A stretch of 54,300 nt of DNA from Frankiales bacterium (GTDB taxonomy: Bacteria > Actinomycetota > Actinomycetes > Mycobacteriales > SCTD01), in contig JAOPWI010000214.1 of the NCBI GenBank assembly GCA_025965755.1, positions 1 through 54,300 of the forward strand, read 5' to 3'. Positions within the stretch are counted from its first letter, which is position 1. Each line of letters opens with the position of its first letter. The translations under genes and the position numbers were made by a program. Positions 595 to 39,743 of this stretch are shown piece after piece. The notes under the pieces are model-generated. The model saw only the letters and a list, made by a program, of their open reading frames with translations. It made no database searches and was not told where the DNA came from.

Positions 595-945
595 GTGAGC
601 GGCTGGCGACGGTGCGACCGGTGCCGGAGGGTCCTGTCGGGGGAGGAGTTCGACGGGGACAGCACGACGTGCCGGGACTGCCTGGCCGGTCCCCCGCCGC
701 CCGCCCCCAAGAAGGCCAAGGCCGGCCCGGTGACCCGCAGCAAGGTCGCCGCGGCGCGCGCCGCGGTTCCCCCCGACGAAGCCGGCCCGCGGCGCCCGCT
801 GCTGGGCGTGGCCGGCAGCGGCGACCTCGAGGTGCGCGAGCGCCGAGCCCGCCGCTCCGCGCAGGAGGCGCTGGCCGAGCTGCACCCCGAGGAGTTCGAG
901 CAGCTGCTGCAGGCCGCCCGCAGCACGGAGGGTCTGCGGACCTAG
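595..945 (+). CDS. Hypothetical small protein with an N-terminal CxxC..CxxC zinc-ribbon-like motif
   Basis: GTG start. Motif CDRCRR..(14)..CRDC. Third-position GC is very high (only about 6 A/T-ending codons in 116), consistent with real coding. Confidence 0.55.
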   Translation: MSGWRRCDRCRRVLSGEEFDGDSTTCRDCLAGPPPPAPKKAKAGPVTRSKVAAARAAVPPDEAGPRRPLLGVAGSGDLEVRERRARRSAQEALAELHPEEFEQLLQAARSTEGLRT

Positions 946-952
946 GGGTCCG

Positions 953-1180
953 TCAGTCGCTGTTGCCGGAGGGGCTCGGACGGCCGTTGATCGCGTCCGT
1001 CCCGTCCTCGACCACCAGGGCCACCGCCGCGAGGGCAAGAGCGTGCGCCCGGCCGTGGTGGCCGCAGAACAGCAGGTCTCCGCCGGGCAACACCGCCCGG
1101 ATGAACGCCTGCGCGCCGCAGCGGTCACAGCGATCGTCGTGGGTGAGCACGCGAGTGGGAGCGAAGGCAGGTGCAGTCAT
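953..1180 (-). CDS. Conserved actinobacterial small Cys/His-rich protein (CDRCG...CGHH motif), function unknown
   Basis: 75-aa ORF. The pattern RCDRCGAQAFIRAVLPGGDLLFCGHHGRAH is typical of a small protein family common in Actinobacteria. Confidence 0.65.
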   Translation of the reverse strand: MTAPAFAPTRVLTHDDRCDRCGAQAFIRAVLPGGDLLFCGHHGRAHALALAAVALVVEDGTDAINGRPSPSGNSD

Positions 1181-1280
1181 GGCGGCCGTCCTCGGGTCGG
1201 TGTCCGGCTCCAGCTGTATCGGCAGGCCCGGCCGAACCCGTAGTGGCGGGAACTGGTAATGTTCCGCGCCGTACCACCCA

Positions 1281-1353
1281 GCGCCGCTAGCTCAATTGGC
1301 AGAGCAGCGGACTCTTAATCCGCGGGTTCGGGGTTCGAGTCCCTGGCGGCGCA
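1281..1353 (+). tRNA. tRNA-Lys (anticodon CTT)
   Basis: 73-nt cloverleaf folded by hand. Acceptor GCGCCGC/GCGGCGC, D stem GCTC/GAGC, anticodon stem GCGGA/TCCGC with loop CT-CTT-AA, T arm CGGGG-TTCGAGT-CCCTG, discriminator A. CCA is not encoded. Confidence 0.95.
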
Positions 1354-1865
1354 CCCCGTGTGACCTGGCCCTTCACCTTCCGAGGTGCGGGGCCAGCGTC
1401 GTCTCCGGCGAGATCGTCAGTTCAGACTCAGTTTCAGCCGGAGCTGATCTTCTCTCCGTGGCGGTGCGCCCGGGTGCCCACGGGGCCCCACGATCGCTGG
1501 AGTTGCCTGCTGCGCGACAGTGTCCTTGACTGCTGAGCCTGCGAGCGCAAAGGCTGACGGACGCGCTACCCGGTGACGGCCTCGCCACCTCCGGTGCCGA
1601 CGGCCGCGACCCCGTGGGGTAGTTCCGGCGGCCCAGGCGCGAAGGCCTTGGCTCGCGACGGTCTCGTGGCCCACCGCGCGTCAGGTGCCCTCAGCCATGC
1701 GCTGCGCTACAGCTCCTGGCCGGTGCCACCGGGCGCGAGTCGCACCCTGTCGACCTGTAGCTCAGGGACGCGTCCGGTTCGAGCCCCGTGATCCGCCGGT
1801 CCCTGCCGCAGCCAGCGCCTCGTCGTCCCGCGGGTGGGAGACGGCACCCAACGGGGAGGGCTGAC

Positions 1866-3569
1866 TCACCCGGCGAGCGTCGAGACGCGAGCCGGTGCCG
1901 CCGACCAGAGCGCGCCGCGGGCGTGCGGGGGGACCGCTGGAGACATCGGCGGTACCGCGGCGAGGCGCACGTACTCCTCCCCCTGCGCCGGGCGCACGTC
2001 CTGCTCGCCCTTGTTCGGCCACAGCGCCAGCGCCCGCTCTGCCTGGGCCGTGATGGTGAGCGACGGGTTGACCCCGAGGTTGGCGCTGATGGCCGAGCCG
2101 TCGACGACGGAGATCGACGGGTGTCCCCAGAGCCGCTGGTACGGGTCGACGACCCCGGTCGCCGGCGACTCACTGATCGGGCAGCCGCCGATGAAGTGGG
2201 CGGTCATCGGCACGTTCGCGAGCTCCCCGACCGTGCCGGTCGTGTAGCCGCCCATCTTCTCGGCGAGTCGGGTCGCGACCTCGTCGCCGGCCGGGATCCA
2301 CGTGGGATTCGGCGCGCCATGGCCCTGGCGCGACGTGAGCCGGCCGCGCCGCAGGAACGTGGTCACGGAGTTGTCAAGGGTCTGCATCACGAGCACGACG
2401 ACGGACCGCTCCGACCACCGGTACGGGACCAGGGTGCGCAGGAAGACCAGTGGGTGGCGGAGGGGACCGGCCAGACCGCGCAGCCAACGCGGCAGCCGGC
2501 CGCTGCCGCCGATCATCACCGTGGTGACGAAGGCCATCGCGTTCGAGCCCTTGCCGTACCGGCAGGGCTCCACGTGCGTCACGTCGTCGGGGTGGAAGGA
2601 CGAGGTGATCGCGACCCCTCGGGTGAAGTCGTCCTTCGTCGTCCACTGCGCCGCGACGCGCAGCGACTCGCTGTTGGTGCGGGTGAGGTGGCCGAGCCGC
2701 TCGGACAACCGGGGCAGGGTGCCGGCGTCGCGGTGGGAGTGCAGCAGCGTCTGCGTGCCGAGCGCCCCCGCGGCCAGGACGACGTGGCGGGCGCGGAACA
2801 CGGTCCTGCGGCCGCCGAGGGCCCGCGTCGCGCGGGCGGTGACCCGCACGCCGTCGCCGAGGTCGCGCAGCTCGGTCACGGTGGTGTCGGGGACGATCCG
2901 TGCGCCGAGGCCCTCGGCCAGGTGCAGGTAGTTCTTCACGAGCGTGTTCTTGGCACCGACACGGCACCCCGTCATGCAGGAGCCGCACTCCGTGCAGCCG
3001 GTGCGCTCGGGGCCTGCCCCGCCGAAGTAGGGGTCGGCGACCTTCGTGCCCGGCTGCTTCTGCCCGTCACCGAAGAAGACGCCAACGGGGGTGAGGCGGA
3101 AGCTGCGCCCGACACCCATGTCGTTCGCGACGTCGCGCATCAGCTCGTCGCTGCGGGTCACCGTCGTGTTGTCCGTGACCCCGAGCATGCGGCTCGCCTG
3201 CTCGTACCAGGGCGACAGCTCGGCGTCCCAGTCGGTGATGTGCGACCACTGCGGGTCGCGGAAGAACGGCGACGGCGGCTTGTAGAGCGTGTTCGCGTAG
3301 TTCAACGACCCGCCACCGACTCCGGCGCCCGCGAGCACCAGCACCTGGCCGACCTTGACGATGCGCTGGATGCCGTGGAGCCCGAGCCGGGGTGCCCACA
3401 CGAACCTGCGGATCGACCAGGACGTCGTGGGAAGCTCGTCGTCGGCCCACCGGCGCCCGGCCTCCAGCACGACGACCGAGTAGCCCTTCTCGGCGAGGCG
3501 CAGCGCGGCGACGCTCCCGCCGAAGCCGGATCCCACGACCACGACGTCGACGTCCTCAGTGCTGGGCAT
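1866..3569 (-). CDS. FAD-dependent GMC-family oxidoreductase (cholesterol-oxidase / long-chain alcohol oxidase-like)
   Basis: N-terminal DVVVVGSGFGGSVAALRLAEKGYSVVVLEAG Rossmann motif. 567 aa. GAAGGAG Shine-Dalgarno sequence upstream of the ATG. Last gene of the alkB operon. Confidence 0.85.
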   Translation of the reverse strand: MPSTEDVDVVVVGSGFGGSVAALRLAEKGYSVVVLEAGRRWADDELPTTSWSIRRFVWAPRLGLHGIQRIVKVGQVLVLAGAGVGGGSLNYANTLYKPPSPFFRDPQWSHITDWDAELSPWYEQASRMLGVTDNTTVTRSDELMRDVANDMGVGRSFRLTPVGVFFGDGQKQPGTKVADPYFGGAGPERTGCTECGSCMTGCRVGAKNTLVKNYLHLAEGLGARIVPDTTVTELRDLGDGVRVTARATRALGGRRTVFRARHVVLAAGALGTQTLLHSHRDAGTLPRLSERLGHLTRTNSESLRVAAQWTTKDDFTRGVAITSSFHPDDVTHVEPCRYGKGSNAMAFVTTVMIGGSGRLPRWLRGLAGPLRHPLVFLRTLVPYRWSERSVVVLVMQTLDNSVTTFLRRGRLTSRQGHGAPNPTWIPAGDEVATRLAEKMGGYTTGTVGELANVPMTAHFIGGCPISESPATGVVDPYQRLWGHPSISVVDGSAISANLGVNPSLTITAQAERALALWPNKGEQDVRPAQGEEYVRLAAVPPMSPAVPPHARGALWSAAPARVSTLAG

Positions 3570-3654
3570 GCGTGCTTCTCCTTCGTTCGACGTGCGGTGA
3601 CGGCTGGGTGAGGGCGGGCGCCACCCGTCGGCGGCCAGGAGGCGGAGGAACGGG

Positions 3655-4875
3655 TCAGCGGGTGACAGCGAGGACGTCCAGCTCGCGCGCGAACGTCACC
3701 GCCTCGTCCCAGTCGCCCGCATCGGCGATGCGGCGGCGCAGCTTCATCACCACGCGCTGCCGGTCGACCGTCAAGGCTCCGACGACACGGTTGCCGCGGC
3801 GGTACAGCGCGATGGCACCCGGTCCCGGCGGCCCCACGAGCAGCACCTCGTCCGCGCCGGGCGTGCCCACGAACTGCACGCGGTGGCCGTACCAGTCGGA
3901 CCAGAAGTAGGGGACGCTGTCGAGCAGCTCAGGTTCCTGGCGGGACACCGCGTTGCGACCCGCCAGCGAGCCCTGCTCCGCGGCGTTGGTCCAGTGCTCG
4001 AGCCTCATCAGCTCGCCGTCGAACAGCGCCTGCGGGGCGTGCGCCACGTCCCCAGCGGCCCAGATGCCGGGGACCGAGGTCGCGAGGGACGCGTCGCACA
4101 CGATGCCTCCGTCGCGGTGCAGGTCGACGGCCGCGCCCAGCCACCCGGTGGCAGGGGTGACCCCCAGCCCCGCGACGACGAGGTCGGCCTCGACCACCGA
4201 CCCGTCCGCGAGGCGCACGCCGGTCACCTGGCCGTTCGCGTGCAGCACCTGTTCGACGCCGACGCCGAGCCGCACCGCGGTGCCGGCCTCACGGTGCAGG
4301 TCGGTGAGCATCTCGCCCACGGCAGGTCCGACCGAGCGCGACAGCGGCGTGGGCATGGCCTCGATCAGGGTGACCGACAGGCCGCGCTTGTGCGCCGCGG
4401 ACGCGACCTCGGAGCCGATGAAGCCGGCACCGATGATGATCACTCTGGCGCCCGCGTCCATGGCAGTGCGTACGTCCCGGGCGTCGTCCAGGGTGCGCAG
4501 CGTGCTCACGCCGCGCAGCCCCTCGGTGCCGGGGAGCTGCCGTGGTGTCGCGCCGGTCGCGATGACGAGGGCGTCGTAGCGGATTCGCGTCCGGTCCGTG
4601 ACGACGTCGCGGGCCGCCAGGTCGAGGCCCTGGGCTCGTTCGCCGAGGTGGAGGTCGACCCCGAGGTCGTCGCGCAGCTCGCGGTCGCTGATGAGCGTCA
4701 CCATCTCCGCGTTCTGCTCGGTCAGGTAGGCCTTGGCCAGCGAGGTCCGGTCGTACGGCGCCCACAGCTCCTCCCCGACCAGGCTGATCTCGCCTTGGTA
4801 GCCGGCCGACCTGGCCCCCTCGACGGCCCGCAGCCCCGCCAGGGAGGCGCCGACCACCACAAGCCGGTGGGGCAT
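3655..4875 (-). CDS. NAD(P)H-dependent ferredoxin/rubredoxin reductase (FAD pyridine-nucleotide-disulfide oxidoreductase family)
   Basis: Two dinucleotide folds (VVVGASLAG, IIIGAGFIGSEVA). 406 aa. One-nt spacing to the upstream ferredoxin gene. Confidence 0.85.
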   Translation of the reverse strand: MPHRLVVVGASLAGLRAVEGARSAGYQGEISLVGEELWAPYDRTSLAKAYLTEQNAEMVTLISDRELRDDLGVDLHLGERAQGLDLAARDVVTDRTRIRYDALVIATGATPRQLPGTEGLRGVSTLRTLDDARDVRTAMDAGARVIIIGAGFIGSEVASAAHKRGLSVTLIEAMPTPLSRSVGPAVGEMLTDLHREAGTAVRLGVGVEQVLHANGQVTGVRLADGSVVEADLVVAGLGVTPATGWLGAAVDLHRDGGIVCDASLATSVPGIWAAGDVAHAPQALFDGELMRLEHWTNAAEQGSLAGRNAVSRQEPELLDSVPYFWSDWYGHRVQFVGTPGADEVLLVGPPGPGAIALYRRGNRVVGALTVDRQRVVMKLRRRIADAGDWDEAVTFARELDVLAVTR

Positions 4876-31010: not shown

Positions 31011-32171
31011 GTGATCGGTTCATCGGGGAGGCCGCGCCTCTGGCTGGTCGACGACGAGCAGCACGTCCTGTCCGGACTGAAGCGGACGCTGCGCACCCAC
31101 TGGGACGTGACGACCATGACCGAGCCGGTCCTCGCCCTGGCTCGGCTGGAGGCCGCGGTCGCTGACCAGCTCGAGCCGGCTGTGCTGGTCAGCGACATGC
31201 GCATGCCCGGGCTGGACGGGGCTCAGATGCTGGCTCGCGCCCGGTTGCTGTCCCCCGACACGGTGCGCGTGCTGCTGACCGGAGAGGCGGACATCGCCGC
31301 CGCGATCCGCTCTGTCAACGACGGGGGCATCTTCCGGTTCCTCACCAAGCCCTGTCCCCCGGAGGAGCTGGACCGGGCGCTGGAGGCCGCGCTCGAGCAG
31401 CACCGCCTGGTCACAGCGGAGAAGGTCCTGCTCGAGCGCACGCTGGCCGGTGCGGTGGGCGCGCTGAGCGACACGCTGTCGCTGGCCGCGCCGGGCCTGT
31501 TCACGCGGGTCGTCCGGATCAAGCGGATGGCCCTGGCGATCGCCCGGCAGGCCGGGCACAGCCTGCCCTGGCACGACGAGATCGCGCTGACGCTGACGCA
31601 CCTGGGCACGGTCAGCCTGCCGCGCGCGGTGCTGGACAAGCTGGACCGGGACCAGGACCTGCTGCCCGACGAGCAGGCCATGGTGGAGCGGGTGCCCGCC
31701 CTGTCGGCCCGGCTCCTCAACGGCATTCCGCGCCTCGAGGCGGTGCAGGCGGCGGTCACCGCGAGCCCGCTGCGGTTCGACGGCCGCGGTTCACCGTGCG
31801 GCGAACCGACCGGCGCCGAGCTGCCGTTGTCGTCCCGACTGCTGCGCCTGGCCGGCGACCTCGACCGGCTGATCTCCGGCGGCATGCCGGCTGCCGATGC
31901 CGTCAACGTGCTCGCGCAGGACCCCGGCGCCTACGACCCGGACCTGCTGGCTGCCGCCCGGGTCACGGGCGGCTCCGCCAAGCGCAACTTGCAGATGCTG
32001 CCCATCGATCGGCTCGAACGGGGAATGATCATCGCCGTGGACGTGACGTCCGCGTCTGGCGCGCTGCTGATCGGGCGGGGCAGCACCGTCACCGCGGGCC
32101 TGGTCGAGCATCTGAGCAACCACAAGGAGAGCGGCAGCTTTCGGGGCACCATCGTGGTCGAGGTCGTGTGA
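31011..32171 (+). CDS. Response regulator: REC domain plus degenerate HD-GYP-like output domain plus a short C-terminal beta-rich module
   Basis: REC motifs are intact (LVDDE, LVSDMRMPGLDG, LLTG, FLTKP). The HD-GYP positions read FTRVV, THLGTV and SPLRFDGRGSP instead of H..RV, HDxGK and HHExxDGxGYP. Confidence 0.8.
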   Translation: MIGSSGRPRLWLVDDEQHVLSGLKRTLRTHWDVTTMTEPVLALARLEAAVADQLEPAVLVSDMRMPGLDGAQMLARARLLSPDTVRVLLTGEADIAAAIRSVNDGGIFRFLTKPCPPEELDRALEAALEQHRLVTAEKVLLERTLAGAVGALSDTLSLAAPGLFTRVVRIKRMALAIARQAGHSLPWHDEIALTLTHLGTVSLPRAVLDKLDRDQDLLPDEQAMVERVPALSARLLNGIPRLEAVQAAVTASPLRFDGRGSPCGEPTGAELPLSSRLLRLAGDLDRLISGGMPAADAVNVLAQDPGAYDPDLLAAARVTGGSAKRNLQMLPIDRLERGMIIAVDVTSASGALLIGRGSTVTAGLVEHLSNHKESGSFRGTIVVEVV

Positions 32172-32210: not shown

Positions 32211-33893
32211 TCACAGCCCGGCGACGTCCTCCTGCAGGAACATCGTGCTCAGCAGGTTGAGCAGCTCATCCGGTTCGAAGGGCTTCACCAGGAAGAAGTC
32301 GGCACCGGCCGTCCACGCCGAGGCGCTGGTCAGCGAATCGGTCGCCGCGGTCAGCATGATGACGGGCAGCGGCTGACCCGGCAGCGCGCGAATCCGCTCC
32401 AGAACCTGCAGTCCGCTGATACCCGGCATCATCACGTCGAGGACCACGCAGTCGGGCCGGGCCAGGCCGATCTCCGTCAGCCCGTCCTGGCCGTTCCCCG
32501 CGCTGCGGGTGGAGAAGCCCTCCATCTCGAGGATGTCGACCAGGAGCTGCCGGATGCTCTCGTCGTCGTCGACGACCAGCACCTCCGGAGCGGTCCGGGT
32601 GATCCCCAGGGGGTCCGCCGAGCGTTCCGGGCGGAACGCCGGGGCGGCCCCGGCTGTCGCACTCAGTTCGGGTCGACACTGCTGGCGGGCCAGTCGCGAG
32701 GCCCGCTCGGCGGCCTGGCGCCAGTCGGTGGCGCGCCCCCGCAACTGTGGGTGCTGCAGCAGTGACTCGAGCTCGTCGCGACCCTCCGGCTCACCGTCGG
32801 CCGAGGCCCCGCCGGCCCGGAGGAGCAGGTGTGCGGCCCGCAGGACGCCGTGCACTCCCAGCCCGGCGCCACTGGTACGGGCAGGCTGGTCCTGGGTGGC
32901 GACGGCGGTGACGATCTGCTGAGGCAGACCCCACAGGTTGAGCAGCTCGGCCCCTACCTCGGACCAGGCGAAGCCGGCCCGCTCGGTCGTCACCTGCTCC
33001 ACGGGACGCCCCTCGCGTCGCGCGCGGCGCAGGTCGTCGCAGACGGTGTGGGGATCAGCGGCCGCGGCCGCGAGCATCCCGACATCGCGCAGCGAGGCGG
33101 CAACCTCCACGAAGGGCGCCAGCGCCGGGCTCGCCATCTCGGGGGCCAGCAGCCCGATCGCCACCGAGTGCTCCCAGCCTGCCAGCAGCGCGTCATGCAG
33201 TTCCTGGCCGGCCTCTGGCCAGCTCCACAGGCCGCCCTCCGCCGCGAGCAGCGCTCGGATCATGGGCAGGCCCAGGGTCGCCAGCGCATAGTCGACGGAG
33301 ACGACCCGGGGGCGGGCGCCGTAGAACGCCGAGTTCGCGAGCTGGAGCACCTTGGCGGTCAGCGCAACGTCCCGGTGCGCATGCTCGATGAAGCGCCCGA
33401 GGGTCGCCCCCGGGTCCCCCAGCACGGCTGTGAGGTCCTGCATCAGCCGAGGCGGGCTGGGCAGGGTCCGCAGGGCACCGGCCACGGCCCGCAGCTCAGC
33501 GGCGTTGTCGCGGGCCAGCCCGGCCGTCAGCTGTCGCACGACCTGCGTCAGGTGGGTGACCTCGCACGGCTTGTTGAGGAAGCGGTGCGCCACGAACGCG
33601 GCGCGCACGGCAGCGTCGGGCTCGGTGTGGCCGGAGAGCACCACCCGGGCGACACCGGGATGCTGCTCACGGACACGCGTCAGCAGCTCCGCGCCGCCCA
33701 TGCCGGGCATGCGCATGTCCGAGATCAGGACGTCGCAGGGCTGCTCGGCGATCATCTCCAGCGCGGAGAACCCGCTCGTGGCGAACCGCATGTCCCACTC
33801 ACCCCGCATGCCCCGCAGGGACCTGCGCAGGCCGTCGAGAATGCGCGGCTCGTCATCGACGAACAGCAACCGTGCGTGCGCCGGCTCGGTCAC
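32211..33893 (-). CDS. Dual-receiver signalling protein REC-HDOD-REC
   Basis: The GTG at 33893 forms a GTGA overlap with the kinase stop. REC1 (FVDDE, ISDMRMPGMGG, FLNKP). HDOD region (LPSPPRLMQDL..VLQLANSAFYG). REC2 (VVDDDESI, VLDVMMPGISG, FLVKPF). Confidence 0.85.
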   Translation of the reverse strand: MTEPAHARLLFVDDEPRILDGLRRSLRGMRGEWDMRFATSGFSALEMIAEQPCDVLISDMRMPGMGGAELLTRVREQHPGVARVVLSGHTEPDAAVRAAFVAHRFLNKPCEVTHLTQVVRQLTAGLARDNAAELRAVAGALRTLPSPPRLMQDLTAVLGDPGATLGRFIEHAHRDVALTAKVLQLANSAFYGARPRVVSVDYALATLGLPMIRALLAAEGGLWSWPEAGQELHDALLAGWEHSVAIGLLAPEMASPALAPFVEVAASLRDVGMLAAAAADPHTVCDDLRRARREGRPVEQVTTERAGFAWSEVGAELLNLWGLPQQIVTAVATQDQPARTSGAGLGVHGVLRAAHLLLRAGGASADGEPEGRDELESLLQHPQLRGRATDWRQAAERASRLARQQCRPELSATAGAAPAFRPERSADPLGITRTAPEVLVVDDDESIRQLLVDILEMEGFSTRSAGNGQDGLTEIGLARPDCVVLDVMMPGISGLQVLERIRALPGQPLPVIMLTAATDSLTSASAWTAGADFFLVKPFEPDELLNLLSTMFLQEDVAGL

Positions 33894-35278
33894 GACGCAC
33901 CAGCCCCGGGGCCCTCGACGGGCAGCCGGACCTCGAACCGGGTACCTGAGCCGGGTTCGGAGAACACCTCGATGCTGCCCCCATGGTTCTGCACGACCAC
34001 GGCTCGCGCCAGGGCCAGTCCCTGTCCGGTGCCGTGACCGACGTCCTTGGTGGTGAAGAACGGCTCGAAGATCTTCCCGATGATGTCCGGCGGGATACCA
34101 GGCCCGTTGTCCTGCACGCTGACCGTGACCCATCCGGCGTCATGGCTGGTGGTCACCGAGATGGTCCCCCGGGTGCTCGCGCCCTGCAGCGCGTCGGCCG
34201 CGTTGACCAGCAGGTTCAGGAAGACCTGGTTGAGGCTTCCGACGTGGCACACGACAGGAGGGATGTCCCCCAGCTGCAGGGCGATGTCCGCCACGTACTT
34301 GATCTCGTTGCGCGCGACGGTCAGGGTCGTGCGGAGGGCGTCGTTGAGATCGGCGTGCCCGCGCTCGGCCTGGTCGCGGTAGCTGAACGCCTTCATGGCC
34401 CGCACCAGCGTCGCCACCCGCTCGATGCCCTCCAGGCTCTGCTGAACGGCGAGGGGAACCTCGCTGGCGAGGTAGTCGATGTCCGCTGCGGCCTCGGCAT
34501 TGGTCATCCGGTCGCGGCGCTCCTGCCACGACAGCGCGCCGGGGCCGCCGTCCAGGCACGCCCGGTACTCCAGCAGCAGCTCCAGCATCGTGCTGTACGA
34601 GGAGGCCAGGAAGCGGGTGTTGTCACCGACGAACTGGATCGGCGTGTTGATCTCGTGGGCGATGCCGGCGGACAGCCGTCCCAGGGCTTCCAGCTTCTGG
34701 TCGTGCCGCGACTCGATCTCCCGGCTGAGGGCCTTCTCGGCGTCGGCGAGCCGTCGGCTCTCGGCCTGCGCGGCGTGCAGCCGGGTCGCCAGCTGAGCCG
34801 CGTCGCGTACCGCGATGGCCTGGGCCTGATTCACATAGAGCCGGTCGAGCAGCGAGTCGTGGACGGCGAAGTCCTCCATGGACAGGCCGTGGTCGAACAG
34901 CTCCGCGGCGTCGTTGACGGCCGGCGACCCCAGGAACAGGGCGGTGCGGCTGTCGTCGTCGACGACGACCTGGCCGCGCAGCGTCAGTCCGGGTCCGGTA
35001 GGCGGAAGCAGCCGAAGCAGAACGAGGGCGCCCGGGTGCGCCGCGAAGTCGGCGACGGTGAACGGCAACGGCGGGGACACGAGGTGCGCCACGTCCGTGA
35101 CGGGCTGGCCGATCCGGGCCTGCGGCACCAACCGTTGCAGCACCGGTCCCAGACCGCGGATCATGAGCTGCTCGTCGAAGGCCAGGTAGAAGGGGAAGGC
35201 GGCGTCCAGGACACGGGGAGGCAGCGTCAGGCCGCCCCGGTGCTCAGGGGGGCCCGCGCTCGACGCGGAACTCGTCAC
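33890..35278 (-). CDS. Soluble histidine kinase with an N-terminal HNOBA-like (heme-NO-binding-associated, PAS-like) domain
   Basis: No TM segment. FPFYLAFDEQLMIRGLGPVLQRLVPQ resembles the FPFHIIFDRDL..RVLPQ signature of soluble guanylate cyclase HNOBA domains. H-box SAGIAHEINTPIQF. Complete HATPase_c (NLLVNAADA, DNGPGI, GTGQGLALA). Confidence 0.8.
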   Translation of the reverse strand: MTSSASSAGPPEHRGGLTLPPRVLDAAFPFYLAFDEQLMIRGLGPVLQRLVPQARIGQPVTDVAHLVSPPLPFTVADFAAHPGALVLLRLLPPTGPGLTLRGQVVVDDDSRTALFLGSPAVNDAAELFDHGLSMEDFAVHDSLLDRLYVNQAQAIAVRDAAQLATRLHAAQAESRRLADAEKALSREIESRHDQKLEALGRLSAGIAHEINTPIQFVGDNTRFLASSYSTMLELLLEYRACLDGGPGALSWQERRDRMTNAEAAADIDYLASEVPLAVQQSLEGIERVATLVRAMKAFSYRDQAERGHADLNDALRTTLTVARNEIKYVADIALQLGDIPPVVCHVGSLNQVFLNLLVNAADALQGASTRGTISVTTSHDAGWVTVSVQDNGPGIPPDIIGKIFEPFFTTKDVGHGTGQGLALARAVVVQNHGGSIEVFSEPGSGTRFEVRLPVEGPGAGAS

Positions 35279-35390
35279 AGCCCCCGCCCTCCTGCCGATG
35301 GCCGGGCAGCGTCACCGGGACCGTGGTGGCGGGCCCCTCGCCCGGGCCCCGGGTCCATGAACGCGGCGCTGCCGTCGTGCCCGCCCGCGG

Positions 35391-38300
35391 TCATGCGTCG
35401 CTCCGGGGCAGCCACAGGGTCACGACGCACGCGCCGGACCGTTGCGCGCGCGCGTCGATCGTGCCGCCGGTGGCCTCGATCAGCGTGCGGGCGAGGAACA
35501 GCGCCCCCGTCAGATCCGTGGTCTCGAGCGTCCCGACCCGGCCGGCGGGAAGCGGGGCGAACAGGTCGGCGGTCGCCGGCCAGGCGGGGCCGGCGTCGCG
35601 CACCTGCACGGCGACGCCGTCACCGATGCATTCCACGTCGATGCTGACGGCGGTTCCGGCGGCGCAGCGACGGGACGTGAGGTCCAGCACGGCCGCGACG
35701 GCCTGCTGCAGCGCGACCCGATCGGTCAGCACGCGGACGTCGTCCTGACCGCTCAGGGTGACCGCATTCGTGGTCGACAGACCCGACGCTTGCAGCGAGG
35801 CCGCAAGCTGCGGCTGCAGCAGCAGCGGCTCGAGGTTCACGGCGTGACGCAAGATCTCTCCCCGCGCCTGGTCCAGCAGTTGGTCCAGGTGCCGGCGGAC
35901 CTGCGCCGTGCTGTCCGCCAGGGCCAACAGCGCCTGCCGGATCTGGACCTCGGGCAGGGCGGTCCACGACGCGGCCAGGCGATCACTGGAGATCGACAGG
36001 GTGTTCAAGGGCTCGCGGAGCCGGGCTTCGGCGGTGGCCAGCACCATGGCCTGCGCATGCTGGTGCCGCTGCACCGACCGGTGGCGTTCCTGCTCGGCCT
36101 CGGCGAGTCGCTTGTGGGAGATGCGTTCGCCGAGAATCTGGGCGTAGAACGCCACGGTGTCCAGGGTGTGCCGGTCGACCTCGACGACGCTGGCGCTCGC
36201 GGCACAGAGCGTGCCGACCAGCTTTCCGTCGTCGTCCAGGATCGGAACGCCCAGGTAGCTGCGGATGCCGAGGTCCGTCGCGGCGGAGCATGTCGGGAAC
36301 GTCTCGCGGGCGTCCCTGAGGAAGACCGGCCCGTCGGTGATGGCCCGCGAGCACAGCGAATCCGACCAGCTCACCTGCAGCCCCTCGGTGATCTGCAGAT
36401 CGCCGGTGTTGCTCGCCACCAGGATGTCCTGCCGCCCGTCGGCGACATGGGTGAGGTAGGTCGACTCGAGGCCGGTCATGCGCCGCAGGTGCTCGAGCAG
36501 CGGGCGCGCCAGCTGGTCGATGCCGGCCGGGTCGACCGGCCGCAGGTCGGTTCCGGGCACGTGCGGAACGTCCGGAGCAGGAAAGCCGGGGAGCGGTTCG
36601 TTCTGCCCGAGCAGGCCCACGAGCTGGGCGGCGTCAACCGGCCGGGCGAACAGGTAGCCCTGCGCGAACTGACATCCCTGCGCCCGCAGGAACGCCAGCT
36701 GGGCAGGGGTCTCGACGCCTTCCGCGACGACGTCCAGGCCGAGGCCGCGGGCCATGGCCATCATGGCGACGACCAGCGGCGCCCCTGCCTGCTCGTCGCA
36801 TTCCTTGACGAAGGACCTGTCGATCTTGAGCCGTACGAACGGCAGCTGCCGGAGCTGGCCGAGCATGGAGTAGCCGGTTCCGAAGTCATCGATCGACAGG
36901 GCGACGCCCAGGTCGGCCAGCTGGCGGAGCACGGCAACGCACGCTGACGCCTGCTCCACCGCGGCGGTCTCGGTCAGCTCGAGGTCCAGCCGCTGGGCGG
37001 GAACCCCGCTGTCCCGCAGGGCCTGGGTGACGTCGTCGACGAACCGGCCGTCCAGTTGAACGGCGGAGACGTTGACGGCCATGACGAGGTGGCCGTAGCC
37101 GGCCGCGTGCCACCGGGCCAGCTGGGCGCAGGCGGTGTCCAGCACCCACTTGCCAAGCGGCACGATGAGCCCGGTCTGCTCGGCGAGACCGATGAACTCG
37201 TCGGGGCGGACCAGGCCCCGGGTCGGGTGCTGCCAGCGGACCAGCGCCTCCACACCGACGATCTGCCCGGTGCTCACGTCGACCTGCGGCTGGTAGCGCA
37301 GCTCGAACTCCTGCTCGTCCAGAGCCCGCTGCAGGTCGGCCTGCAGAGCCAGCCGCTGGCAGAGCACGTCCTTCATTCCCTCGCGGTACATGACCAGCCG
37401 GCCTGGCCCGGCGGCGACCGCCGCCGCGAGCGCCACCCGGGCCTCGTGCAGCAGGTCGGAGGTGCTGCCGTCGACCGTGCCGGCCGCGCCGATGCTCACG
37501 CTGAAGCGGGTCGCGTTCACCGCCTCGTCGGGGCGCTCCAGTGCCGCCATGAGCCGCTGCGCCACGGGCAGCAGGCTCTCCGGCTGGTTGCCGCGGCTGA
37601 TCACGGCGAACTCGTCGAGGTCACTGCGAGCCAGCGTGGCGTCGTCCCGCAGGCTGTCCCTCAGCCGGTGGATGATCTCCTGGACGAGCTTCTCCCCTTC
37701 CGGCTCGCCGCGCCCGGTGGTGACCGCCCGCACGTCGTGGACCCGCACCAGCAGCAGGCCGCGGAACGTGGAGTCCGCACCCGGCCGGTCCAGCTCGTCG
37801 CGCAGGCCGGAGGCGTTCAGCAGGCCGGTCATCGCGTCGTGCCGGCTGCTGTGCTCGGCCAGGTCCGCCACGGCGGTGCTCTCGGTGACGTCGTGGAAGG
37901 TCGCCACGGCACCCAGGCACGCGCCCGACTCGTCGTAGAGGGGTCGGGCGGAAGCGACGAACCGGGTCCTGTTGCCCCCTGCCTGGGTCACCGTCAGGGC
38001 CTGCGATTCCACGACCTGCCCCTGCAGCGCCCGGGACAGCGGGGCCTGACTGAGCGGCAGCGGCGCGCCGTCGGGGTGGGACAGGACGAGGTCCTCCAGG
38101 CGCTGGCTGCTCTGGCCGTCGAGCCGGCCGCTCAGGCCGAGCTTGCGCTGCAGCGCGCCGTTCATGAGGATGATCTGCCCTCGGGGGTCACAGGCCGCGA
38201 CACCTTCGGTGAGTGACTCCAGGGTGGCGTCGAGGAACAGTCGCTGCCTGGCTGCCTCGGCCTGCGCCTCCAGGACCTCGCTGACGTCCCGGACGAACGC

Positions 38301-39614
38301 CGACAGCCGCCAGCCCCCCGCGTCCTGGCGGAACGAGGTGGCCAGCTCGACGGTGAACCGGTGGCCGTCACGGCGCTGGACCATGCGTCGGGGCCCGTCG
38401 ATCCCGAGCGACGGACCCTGGATGAGCTGCTTGACGACTGCGCTGAACGTCCCGTGGAGCTCCGCGGGAATGATGAGGTCCGCCAGCCGGCGCCCGCGGG
38501 CCTCCGCAGCGGACCAGCCAAAGGTCCGCTCGGCCTGCCGGTTCCACTGCGTGACGCAGCCGGCCTGGTCGAACTCGATGAAGGCGTCGTGGCCCTGTTC
38601 CACGACCGCCCGGGCCTGTTCCTGGCTGGCGCGCAGCATGGCGGCGTCCTGCTCGCGGGCCATGGCGTGTCCCAGCTGCGCGGCGATCGACAACAGCGCG
38701 CGCTCGTCGACCGGAACGGCCCGGGTCGGATCGCCGAGGAACTGCAGATGGCCGACGACTCCGTTGCGGGCCAGCACCGGAAGGCTGACGAGCTCGTCGC
38801 CGCCGGGTCGGCCGCCCGCCTGCTCGGGGGCGAGAGGATGGCGCGTCAGTCCCTGGTACGCCGCGGCCGACGGCGGGTTGCTGAGCGCCGCGACCGCCTG
38901 CGCGGTGGACGCCCCGACGGTGGCGCCGAACCACTCACCTGCCGTCCAGGGCCCCTGCGTGCCGGGCACCGCAGCGAGCAGACGGCCGGCGGACCAGCCG
39001 GTGACGGCGCAGAGGCGGTCGATCGTGACCTGCACGACAGTGCCCAGGTGCTCGGCCTCGCTGGCGACCCGGGCGACCTCGTGCACCGTCTCGAGCAGCT
39101 GCTCCTGGCGGGCGTGGGCGGCCTCGACGACGCGAGCCTGCGTGAGGTCCTCGACGTGCGCGATCAGGTAGAGCAGCCGCCCGGTGACGTCCTCGACCCG
39201 GGTGCCCTCCACCCGGACCCAGACGACGTCGCCGTCCGGCCGGACGTAGCGCTTGGTGAGTCGAAGGGTGCGCCGCTCGCCCGCGGCCAGCTGCCGGCGA
39301 CCCTGCGTGGTCATCTCCCAGTCATCGGGATGCGTGAACTCGTTGATGGACAGGCGCTGCAGTGCCGGTTCATCACGCCCGACGAGGCGGCAGAAGGCGC
39401 CGTTGCCGGCCAGGATGCGTCCCTGCGCGTCGACCACGGCCGTGGCGATCTGCGCCTCGTAAAAGGCGTTGCGGAACAGACTCTCGAGGTAGACGGCCGC
39501 CGGCTGACTGGAAAGCACCGTGCTCCGTTCTCGATGTGGCGGCTTCGCGCCAGTTGTCCCCTCAGCCGTGTGGCCCAGCGTTCGGTGCATCGGCTCCGTC
39601 GCTGTCGGAATCAA
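35391..39614 (-). CDS. 1407-aa multidomain signalling protein: PAS-GAF-PAS-PAS-GGDEF(degenerate)-EAL-GAF-histidine-kinase-like (degenerate)
   Basis: The GGDEF motif is replaced by SDLDEF. The EAL motifs are all present ([31 protein letters not shown]). A GAF domain follows the EAL. The C-terminal DHp-like box reads [12 protein letters not shown] with no His at the canonical position. The HATPase-like region lacks the N-box Asn and has DAGPA instead of DxGxG. Confidence 0.85.
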
Positions 39615-39697
39615 CGGTATGCCGGGCGGGAGGCTCCCCCGGAAACTTGGACGTCCTTAGCGTCTCGCTAACGCGAGTCGCCCGGGCTCCGCCCGTG

Positions 39698-39743
39698 CTG
39701 CGCGCGCACCGGCCGGCGGGCGTGACGGCCGGTGCGCGCGCAG
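39698..39743 (-). terminator. Strong GC hairpin immediately after the glutamine-synthetase-like gene
   Basis: Perfect 17-bp arms CTGCGCGCGCACCGGCC / GGCCGGTGCGCGCGCAG with a 12-nt loop, 7 nt past the stop codon. No U-tract, which is common in Actinobacteria. Confidence 0.6.

Follow-up and report, generated by a model that had tools for sequence, protein, structure and literature searches.

A predicted c-di-GMP phosphodiesterase with a histidine pseudokinase tail in a Frankiales bacterium

A contig of a Frankiales bacterium (JAOPWI010000214.1, of which positions 1 to 54,300 were analyzed and are referred to as the window) encodes a protein of 1407 amino acids in which an apparently intact EAL phosphodiesterase domain is followed by a complete GAF-DHp-CA module of histidine kinase descent. 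Judged by its sequence, this module has lost kinase chemistry. EAL enzymes and pseudokinases are each known, and histidine pseudokinases are already established as a class by DivL and PsmA. For an EAL enzyme joined to a complete but dead GAF-DHp-CA module we found no description, and the combination is very rare among public sequences. We consider it reasonably probable that the protein is a soluble multi-sensor c-di-GMP phosphodiesterase whose pseudokinase tail acts as a GAF-controlled dimerisation or docking module.

The open reading frame occupies 35391..39614 on the minus strand, as do all features described below. Candidate start codons are a TTG at 39614, an ATG at codon 9 and a GTG at codon 33. 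All of them lie 5' of the first PAS domain, and the public gene call (P0002) takes the GTG at codon 33 as start. Domain mapping with Pfam and NCBIfam gave the order PAS, weak GAF, PAS, PAS, GGDEF, EAL, GAF, DHp and CA. The three PAS domains were matched by Pfam PAS_9/PAS_3 (residues 59-159, 39138..39440), PAS (residues 334-444, 38283..38615) and PAS_4 (residues 465-579, 37878..38222). Between the first two lies a GAF-like region (residues about 191-318, 38661..39044) that remained below threshold, with GAF_2 reaching 18.2 bits against a cut-off of 28.6 over profile positions 5-135 of 136; the homologue P0010 has a GAF_3 match at the equivalent place. The PAS domains are followed by a degenerate GGDEF domain (residues 591-736, 37407..37844; Pfam and alignment), the EAL domain (residues 759-992, 36639..37340; Pfam and alignment to 5m3c and MorA 4rnh) and a Pro-rich linker of low pLDDT that is predicted to be flexible (residues 1000-1027, 36534..36617). 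The C-terminal part consists of a GAF domain (residues 1031-1162, 36129..36524; Pfam), a DHp-like helical hairpin (residues 1170-1262, 35829..36107; alignments and AlphaFold2) and a degenerate CA domain (residues 1263-1407, 35394..35828; Pfam HATPase_c over residues 1298-1404 and alignments). The initial annotation had described a giant PAS-GAF-PAS-PAS-GGDEF-EAL-GAF protein with a degenerate GGDEF and a kinase-like end, and apart from the sub-threshold N-terminal GAF both the reading frame and its domains were confirmed. An assembly error could be ruled out as the origin of the reading frame because a near-identical contig from a second metagenome carries the same sequence: 3 of 5632 bases differ, and the gene itself differs by one nucleotide, resulting in D1406G. 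As a taxonomic hint, a GS-like gene nearby shows 85% identity to a gene of Geodermatophilus sp.

The GGDEF domain is predicted not to be a diguanylate cyclase. Its signature reads DLDEF (residues 665-669, 37608-37622), with DL in place of GG, and aligns to the GGDEF of 5m3c and MorA. In the alignment to these two proteins the magnesium- and guanine-binding positions (DxD...N...D) are replaced: the template idlDrfkhiND...gD is matched by a stretch of 11 residues followed by ...gE. The RxxD I-site is missing as well and its place is occupied by RDDA. The domain scored 56 bits in the Pfam map of the protein (PF00990) and 61 bits in the comparison across the genome, where it is the second-weakest among 34 GGDEF matches and most GGDEF domains score 120-165 bits. 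The replacement of signature, substrate, Mg and I-site residues strengthens the earlier suspicion that the domain is likely no cyclase.

The EAL domain scored 239.6 bits (Pfam PF00563, cut-off 31.3) and covers profile positions 2-236 of 236. Its motifs were located at residues 789 (EAL), 848 (NVS), 879 (ELTE), 909 (DDFGTGYS), 930 (KIDRSF) and 965 (EGVE). All catalytic motifs are present, making up a string of 29 letters, and the individual residues are EALVR 789-793, N848, E879/E882, D909-D910, the residue at position 930, E965 and QG. The catalytic and metal-binding residues as well as loop 6 match identical residues in 5m3c and MorA; Pfam and this alignment thus both support the previous statement that every EAL catalytic motif is present. 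These data indicate that the protein probably degrades c-di-GMP via its EAL domain. Residues 590-1005 matched MorA (4rnh), 5m3c and DosP best (E 1e-78 to 1e-65). These are PAS-GGDEF-EAL phosphodiesterases whose GGDEF domain is degenerate or regulatory, and their EAL catalytic motifs are identical to those of our protein. Unlike our protein, none of them has a GAF-DHp-CA tail behind the EAL domain.

The tail (residues 1028-1407) descends from a family of soluble, cytoplasmic actinobacterial GAF-HisKA-HATPase kinases of about 400 amino acids and was fused once to a PAS-degenerate GGDEF-EAL protein. It is homologous over its full length to stand-alone members of this family, with 20 representatives found at E<1e-30, and the GAF-HisKA-HATPase architecture of these relatives was confirmed by Pfam. 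An HMM of stand-alone members only matched the tail with 276.9 bits over HMM positions 23-399 of 401, and the posterior was in the top class across the H-box. Stand-alone kinases such as P0009, P0011 and P0021 agree with the tail in their GAF subfamily and in the layout of helix, hairpin and CA. They lack an EAL domain and keep the family consensus motifs AEHxLKTPL, ENAxKY, DxGxG and GxGLGLH, whereas the tail has lost all four.

Four independent alignments (phmmer to PDB kinases, two MAFFT family alignments and the HMM of stand-alone members) place Ala1197 (codon 36024-36026) in the column of the phosphorylated His, within a local AEARLREPL that starts at residue 1195. Outside the PAS-GGDEF-EAL clade, the motif table shows a His in this column for 31 of 34 rows. 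The residue at H+4, where Thr or Asn forms part of the HisKA phosphatase motif (PMC12963549), is Glu1201 in the tail instead of the family Thr. The N-box (35655-35705) reads LDLTSRR, so that DLTSRR stands opposite the family ENAxKY and Leu1312 takes the place of the Asn. In the G1 box (35577-35603), which reads DAGPA at residue 1340, the second Gly is replaced by Ala, and Asp1340 and the first Gly are still present. The G2 box (35487-35528) is lost, with a gap or non-Gly residues in a stretch of ten letters that corresponds to GxGLGLH. Consistently, HisKA remained below threshold on the DHp fragment (17.6 bits, cut-off 26.9), and HATPase_c reached 29 bits on the tail (cut-off 26.4) compared to 81-89 bits in intact family members. 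Because the His, Thr, Asn and the G1/G2 glycines are lost, it is not plausible that the tail binds ATP, autophosphorylates or transfers phosphate, and on the strength of these replacements we classify it as a histidine pseudokinase. The initial annotation had already proposed the change from His to Ala in the H-box and the absence of the N-box Asn; profile alignment placed the tail at top confidence, with Ala1197 and Leu1312 at the catalytic columns. Its further claim that the ATP-lid motifs are lost applies to G2 and to the altered G1, but not to the Asp and first Gly of G1, which are kept.

The degree of degeneration differs along the tail. Family-conserved positions are kept at 13 of 13 sites in the GAF domain (among them Cys1137), 7 of 13 in DHp and 13 of 28 in CA; Cys1088 of the GAF domain, near-invariant in alignment A2, is kept too. 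AlphaFold2 modelled GAF-DHp-CA with a pLDDT of 89.9 as a GAF domain, a continuous 69-residue helix that joins GAF to DHp (model residues 139-207), a hairpin and a CA domain of alpha/beta type; confidence in the model is lowest at the ATP lid. The best Foldseek matches of this model were a bacteriophytochrome kinase, HK853, DivL (4q20), WalK and RetS (E 1e-16 to 1e-11), and the probability was 1.00 for HK853, DivL, WalK and CusS. The predicted fold thus agrees with the initial description of a DHp/CA-like module. A second model spanning EAL to CA had a pLDDT of 90.7, with the EAL-GAF linker disordered (pLDDT 46-59). The first model likewise began with values below 50. With a pTM of only 0.59-0.67, the two models do not establish how the domains are arranged.

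Among 1.84 billion representative proteins, five clusters at 50% identity carry the tail behind a PAS-degenerate GGDEF-EAL protein, and full-text literature searches returned no description of EAL-HisKA or EAL-GAF-HisKA architectures, which bears out the earlier remark that the architecture is unusual. A scan of species genomes with a single tail yielded only unrelated kinases and no fusion in a named species. The five fused tails form one clade (SH-aLRT 98) that is sister to the stand-alone family, and none of them retains both the His and the ATP site: P0003 retains the His only, P0010 and G019 retain the ATP site only, and our protein and P0038 retain neither. The phospho-His column holds A in our protein and H, Y, L and V in the four others. 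At H+4, all five have Q or E, the family residue being T. Pairs within the clade share 26-36% identity in DHp and CA versus 58-60% in EAL, and DHp, CA and the dead GGDEF domain evolve fastest. Compared with the family mean, identity of the tail to stand-alone members is 34% vs 35% in GAF, 23% vs 32% in DHp and 25% vs 37% in CA. The CA domains of our protein and P0003 are 27% identical; stand-alone pairs with similar GAF identity average 36% (sd 7), which is no more than a modest signal of relaxed constraint on CA. Fast evolution of DHp and CA would equally be expected of a decaying relic.

Kinase cores that are used for something other than phosphotransfer have a precedent in DivL of Caulobacter crescentus (PMC4211667). 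DivL (PDB 4q20) and the tail share a class I DHp-CA fold without phospho-His that is preceded by cytoplasmic sensor domains (E about 1e-13). In DivL, which acts on CckA and has no enzyme attached, a Tyr takes the place of the His. In contrast, the tail has an Ala at this position, its ATP site is destroyed and it forms the end of an EAL phosphodiesterase. Like the tail, the pseudokinase PsmA of Streptomyces venezuelae is actinobacterial and has neither a His in the H-box nor the D/ExxT/N phosphatase motif; it was proposed to be a scaffold (PMC12963549). PsmA belongs to the polarisome, resembles a hybrid kinase, binds DivIVA and lacks c-di-GMP domains, and its kinship with the tail was seen no further than the class I fold. 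Spo0B of Bacillus subtilis combines a DHp-like bundle with a CA-like domain to which ATP does not bind; like the tail, it derives from a kinase and its ATP domain is dead. Spo0B is a phosphotransferase that keeps its phosphorylatable His, which the tail of our protein lacks; it is the best analogue of P0003, where the His is kept and the ATP site is lost.

How might a phosphodiesterase benefit from such a tail? We propose that the four-helix bundle of DHp would hold two chains together. The GAF domain, linked to DHp by a helix and carrying two conserved cysteines, might shift the state of the bundle upon binding a ligand. Tethered to EAL by the flexible Pro-rich linker, the dimeric tail could then set the geometry and activity of the EAL dimer or give a partner a surface to dock on. 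As its output, the protein would hydrolyse c-di-GMP rather than transfer phosphate. A flexible linker counts against rigid helical coupling of the tail to EAL, and dimerisation might already be provided by the domains on the N-terminal side (PAS, GAF-like and GGDEF).

The neighbouring genes raise the possibility of a different role. At a distance of 112 nt downstream lies a histidine kinase gene (HNOBA-HisKA-HATPase_c, 33890..35278) whose H-box is intact, followed by that of a REC-HDOD-REC protein (32211..33893). The GTG start of the latter and the stop codon of the kinase overlap in a GTGA, pointing to translational coupling. With all three genes on one strand, the dead DHp-CA might bind a (phospho-)receiver, the candidate being REC-HDOD-REC phosphorylated by the HNOBA kinase, and phosphodiesterase activity would report the phosphorylation state of this pair. 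Such reversed signalling is how DivL works (PMC4211667), and the DHp-CA of DivL ranks high among the structural matches. A related phosphodiesterase in a genome of the same family (L003) has a receiver as its C-terminus (GGDEF-EAL-GAF-REC), which argues that such tails wire phosphodiesterases into two-component signalling, and HisKA, REC and Hpt fragments follow the frameshifted clade member L018. However, we regard this role as unlikely, as the linkage is not conserved. Neither kinase nor receiver was found beside the clade members L011, L012 and L013, and the gene order with HNOBA kinase and REC-HDOD-REC was conserved neither in these loci and L018 nor in 40 related genomes. Nor does conserved synteny favour the suggestion of the initial annotation that the tail could dock the neighbouring receivers or the kinase. 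An HNOBA-kinase homologue was absent from five related loci (tblastn) and from 24 of 24 same-genus or same-family genomes searched, and upon inspection the H-box neighbourhoods of the tail and of the HNOBA kinase DHp showed no similarity. No H-NOX partner for the HNOBA kinase was found in this 81%-complete genome. It is likewise doubtful, though conceivable, that the clade captures a kinase becoming a phosphodiesterase appendage with a DivL-like gating input. A single fusion, possibly via the GAF common to EAL-GAF proteins and GAF-kinases, would have been followed by loss of the phosphatase Thr and then by independent loss of the His, the ATP site or both in each lineage. The dimeric GAF-DHp-CA would sense receiver phosphorylation, or redox or a ligand via the GAF cysteines, and gate c-di-GMP hydrolysis. 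If true, this would represent a direct protein bridge from two-component signalling to c-di-GMP turnover without phosphotransfer to the enzyme.

The mosaic decay within the clade, the low conservation of CA and DHp, which are the least conserved parts apart from the dead GGDEF, and the replacement of 15 of 28 family-conserved CA positions would also fit a kinase part that became dispensable after fusion and is drifting, being harmless or a folding aid. Yet the frame stayed open in four of five lineages at only 25-50% DHp/CA identity (the fifth lies on a frameshifted contig), fold confidence exceeds 90 over most of DHp and CA, and conserved core and turn residues are kept (P1202, L1203, L1213, L1246-1247, D1298, G1320, D1350, F1352, G1384 and L1402). 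End-branches of 0.38-0.97 compare with a family median of 0.7, and only that of P0038, from an error-rich contig, is long, making a functionless relic rather improbable. A sensory role, in which the CA pocket or the GAF domain binds c-di-GMP, pGpG or another nucleotide and feeds back on EAL, has a precedent in CckA, whose HATPase_c domain has been documented to act as a receptor for c-di-GMP (PMC7288161). The GAF subfamily of the tail occurs almost only beside GGDEF, EAL or kinase modules, and Asp1340 of G1, an adenine contact in kinases, is kept; but the pocket-forming ATP lid is the least reliable part of the model and the G1 Asp is lost in P0003 and P0038, and we consider this role very improbable. 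That the tail is a working non-canonical kinase with His1184 or His1186 as acceptor is hardly credible. Both histidines (RHQHAQ) lie 11-13 residues upstream of position 1197 in the same helix, and by helix geometry His1186 would share a face with it. However, they do not align to the family His and are conserved in no relative, the weak HATPase_c match speaks against an active domain, and no ATP site is left in the tail, which lacks the Asn of the N-box, the second Gly of G1 and all of G2. An acceptor His in RHQHAQ together with intact boxes, as considered in the initial annotation, is absent from the family alignments.

With a GAF-controlled dimerisation or docking module as our preferred reading, the clade would be a test case for the control of an EAL dimer by a flexibly tethered C-terminal module. 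As a natural series (His only, ATP site only, neither), it also bears on why dead kinase cores persist. The two-cysteine GAF subfamily is far more widespread, being found beside GGDEF, EAL and kinase outputs, and the identity of its ligand would matter broadly for actinobacterial c-di-GMP signalling. A paper on an M. tuberculosis disulfide has no bearing on the C-terminal GAF domain. Degeneration is also seen in a member of the stand-alone family, WP_182559308.1 of Microlunatus kandeliicorticis.

The protein under study (1407 amino acids) is encoded at 35391-39614 on the minus strand of the window, which has a G+C content of about 73%. The 54.3-kb contig comes from a metagenome-assembled genome (2.9 Mb, 81% complete) in which 34 GGDEF-domain hits point to a c-di-GMP network of unusual density for a genome of that size. 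A GS-like gene near the ORF shares 85% identity with a Geodermatophilus sp. gene, which places the organism among the actinobacteria, close to Geodermatophilaceae. Since a 5.6-kb contig from another metagenome (L019, JGI 3300057020) is 99.95% identical to window positions 34098-39729, with 3 mismatches, the same organism was present in a second sample. Pfam assigned two PAS domains (residues 59-159 and 334-444), a PAS_4 domain (465-579), GGDEF (591-736), EAL (759-992), a C-terminal GAF domain (1031-1162; window 36129-36524, minus strand) and HATPase_c (1298-1404; 29 bits, cut-off 26.4). Profile matches below cut-off were seen for a further GAF domain (residues about 191-318) and for HisKA over the DHp region, the helical hairpin that bears the phospho-His in kinases (17.6 bits).

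Residues 588-1007 match GGDEF-EAL structures including 5m3c and MorA with E-values from 1e-78 to 1e-75, and with NCBIfam models residues about 590-1005 group with DosP- and DibA-type phosphodiesterases, far under all equivalog cut-offs. In alignments to 5m3c and MorA all EAL catalytic elements are present ([27 protein letters not shown] and QG). The same alignments show DLDEF as the GGDEF signature, substituted Mg- and guanine-binding positions and no RxxD I-site in the GGDEF domain, which is the second-weakest among the GGDEF hits of the genome. The initial annotation had called every EAL catalytic motif present and the GGDEF domain likely not a cyclase, and both calls are borne out here. Taken together, intact EAL elements and a degenerate GGDEF domain point, by sequence, to a phosphodiesterase and not a cyclase, with a likely active EAL domain next to a dead GGDEF domain.

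Beyond the EAL domain, residues about 1170-1400 aligned in phmmer searches of PDB sequences with the bacteriophytochrome kinase, KdpD, FixL chimeras, SrrB and ZraS, and an alanine of the window protein falls where KdpD and the bacteriophytochrome kinase have their phospho-His. When 1.84 billion representative proteins were searched exhaustively with HMMER, residues 1010-1407 matched, along their entire length, a family of soluble proteins of about 400 amino acids, which Pfam reads as GAF-HisKA-HATPase_c and whose consensus motifs are AEHxLKTPL, HLxENAxKYSP, DxGxG and GxGLGLH. In the window protein the H-box reads AEARLREPL, the N-box (HLxENAxKY in the family) AVLDLTSRR, G1 DAGPA and G2 [10 protein letters not shown]. 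An HMM built from stand-alone family members only scored the tail at 277 bits and aligned it with maximal posterior probability across the H-box, so the replacement of His by Ala does not stem from misalignment. The family alignment thus agrees with the initial annotation, which had described a C-terminal module without the phospho-His and the N-box Asn and with DAGPA at G1. As a refuting outcome it had named a conserved His at the acceptor position, for example one of the nearby RHQHAQ histidines, together with intact N, G1 and G2 boxes. We rejected His1184 and His1186, as neither is aligned to the family His nor conserved, and all three boxes are altered.

The confident AlphaFold2 model of the tail (pLDDT 89.9) comprises the GAF domain, one continuous 69-residue helix, the helical hairpin and a CA domain of alpha/beta type, the ATP-lid region being its sole weak part. 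In line with the suggested comparison with HK853, Foldseek matched the model to HK853 as well as to Pseudomonas bacteriophytochrome kinase, DivL (4q20), WalK, RetS and CusS. In a second model, from the EAL domain to the C-terminus (pLDDT 90.7, pTM 0.59), the domains are each well folded and the Pro-rich linker 1003-1028 is disordered. Family alignment and predicted fold indicate that the tail is a well-folded GAF-DHp-CA pseudokinase descended from a real kinase family.

An EAL domain with a C-terminal pseudokinase had been thought unusual, and the tail was indeed found behind EAL in only a handful of the 1.84 billion representatives. P0003 (1062 aa), P0010 (1272 aa), the G019 homologue (on contig L011, 1260 aa) and P0038 (on the frameshifted contig L018, with upstream PAS, GGDEF and EAL fragments) form a single clade with the window protein (SH-aLRT 98). 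At the His position the window protein carries Ala, P0003 His and P0038 Tyr, each with a dead ATP site; P0010 carries Leu and the G019 homologue Val, both with intact ATP-site motifs. Position H+4 is Gln or Glu in all five members versus Thr in the family. Identity of the window protein to P0003, P0010 and the G019 homologue is 58-60% in EAL (58-63% over all six pairs among the four), 46-54% in GAF (46-60%), 33-36% in DHp (33-53%), 26-31% in CA (26-49%) and 30-32% in GGDEF (26-46%). The natural series of partial kinase losses that the clade offers is one of the two most useful by-products of this analysis. On L018 (JGI 3300041964, 940-4332), the PAS, GGDEF-EAL, EAL and tail parts of P0038 are annotated as four separate genes whose frames differ, with HisKA, REC and Hpt fragments downstream; the split probably reflects a sequencing or assembly indel problem or, less probably, real pseudogenisation.

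We propose that the tail serves as a dimeric module under the control of its GAF domain, which sets the activity of the EAL dimer or docks a partner. With Ala at the acceptor position and a dead ATP site, it is very unlikely to be an active kinase. Less probably, it is a slowly decaying relic. Where at least 80% of the family agree on a residue, the window protein has it at 13/13 positions in GAF, 7/13 in DHp and 13/28 in CA. Its GAF domain is 34% identical to stand-alone members, which share 35% among themselves; in DHp and CA its identity to stand-alone members falls about 10 points below theirs to each other.

Histidine pseudokinases are already known, namely DivL (PMC4211667) and, in Streptomyces, PsmA (PMC12963549), and a full-text literature search with EAL-HisKA or EAL-GAF-HisKA architecture terms found no paper. 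A DivL-like role, in which the tail reads a receiver, is attractive for this particular operon. The next gene, 112 nt downstream of the ORF, encodes an HNOBA-HisKA-HATPase kinase (33890-35278, minus strand) and is followed by REC-HDOD-REC (32211-33893, minus strand) with a GTGA stop/start overlap that suggests translational coupling; a divergent REC-HD_5 gene (31011-32171) comes thereafter, and no terminator-like site was found. However, conserved linkage lends receiver reading no support. None of the three remaining clade members whose contigs are intact has the HNOBA kinase/REC-HDOD-REC pair beside it, no HNOBA-kinase homologue was detected in any of the five related loci tested, a search of 24 genomes of the same genus or family did not find the kinase in any of them, and the 81%-complete genome of the window has no H-NOX gene. 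The linkage is therefore probably local. Of these readings, we favor the GAF-controlled module.

The C-terminal GAF subfamily, the other most useful by-product of this analysis, is widespread and found upstream of many GGDEF cyclases and at the end of many GGDEF-EAL proteins. Its motifs are [11 protein letters not shown](T/S)LC.RA and DG..GTLCAAS. Across 72 aligned sequences Cys1137 is invariant and Cys1088 occurs in at least 90%, whether the domain lies after EAL, before GGDEF or before a kinase core, suggesting a redox, metal or cofactor site. P0024 (L017 515-2491, JGI metagenome 3300072658) is a singleton EAL-GAF-HisKA-HATPase_c protein with all kinase motifs intact, possibly a bifunctional phosphodiesterase-kinase. 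It clusters with the stand-alone kinase P0021 and is a fusion independent of the window-protein clade. One half of it resembles EAL-GAF proteins, the other a stand-alone GAF-kinase, and the two overlap on GAF, suggesting that EAL-kinase fusions arise through the GAF domain common to both. Another way to wire such phosphodiesterases to two-component signalling is seen in a same-family genome (L003, G020:C89, ORF 1-2580 of the locus), where a GGDEF-EAL-GAF protein ends in REC and has no kinase-like tail. Among the stand-alone GAF-kinases, P0025 (WP_182559308.1; L020 4001-5281) of the cultured strain Microlunatus kandeliicorticis is degenerate: Glu replaces the His, Tyr replaces the N-box Asn and G1 reads GQGIR. 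Its gene is an orphan at its locus, and the protein could be a tractable pseudokinase model.
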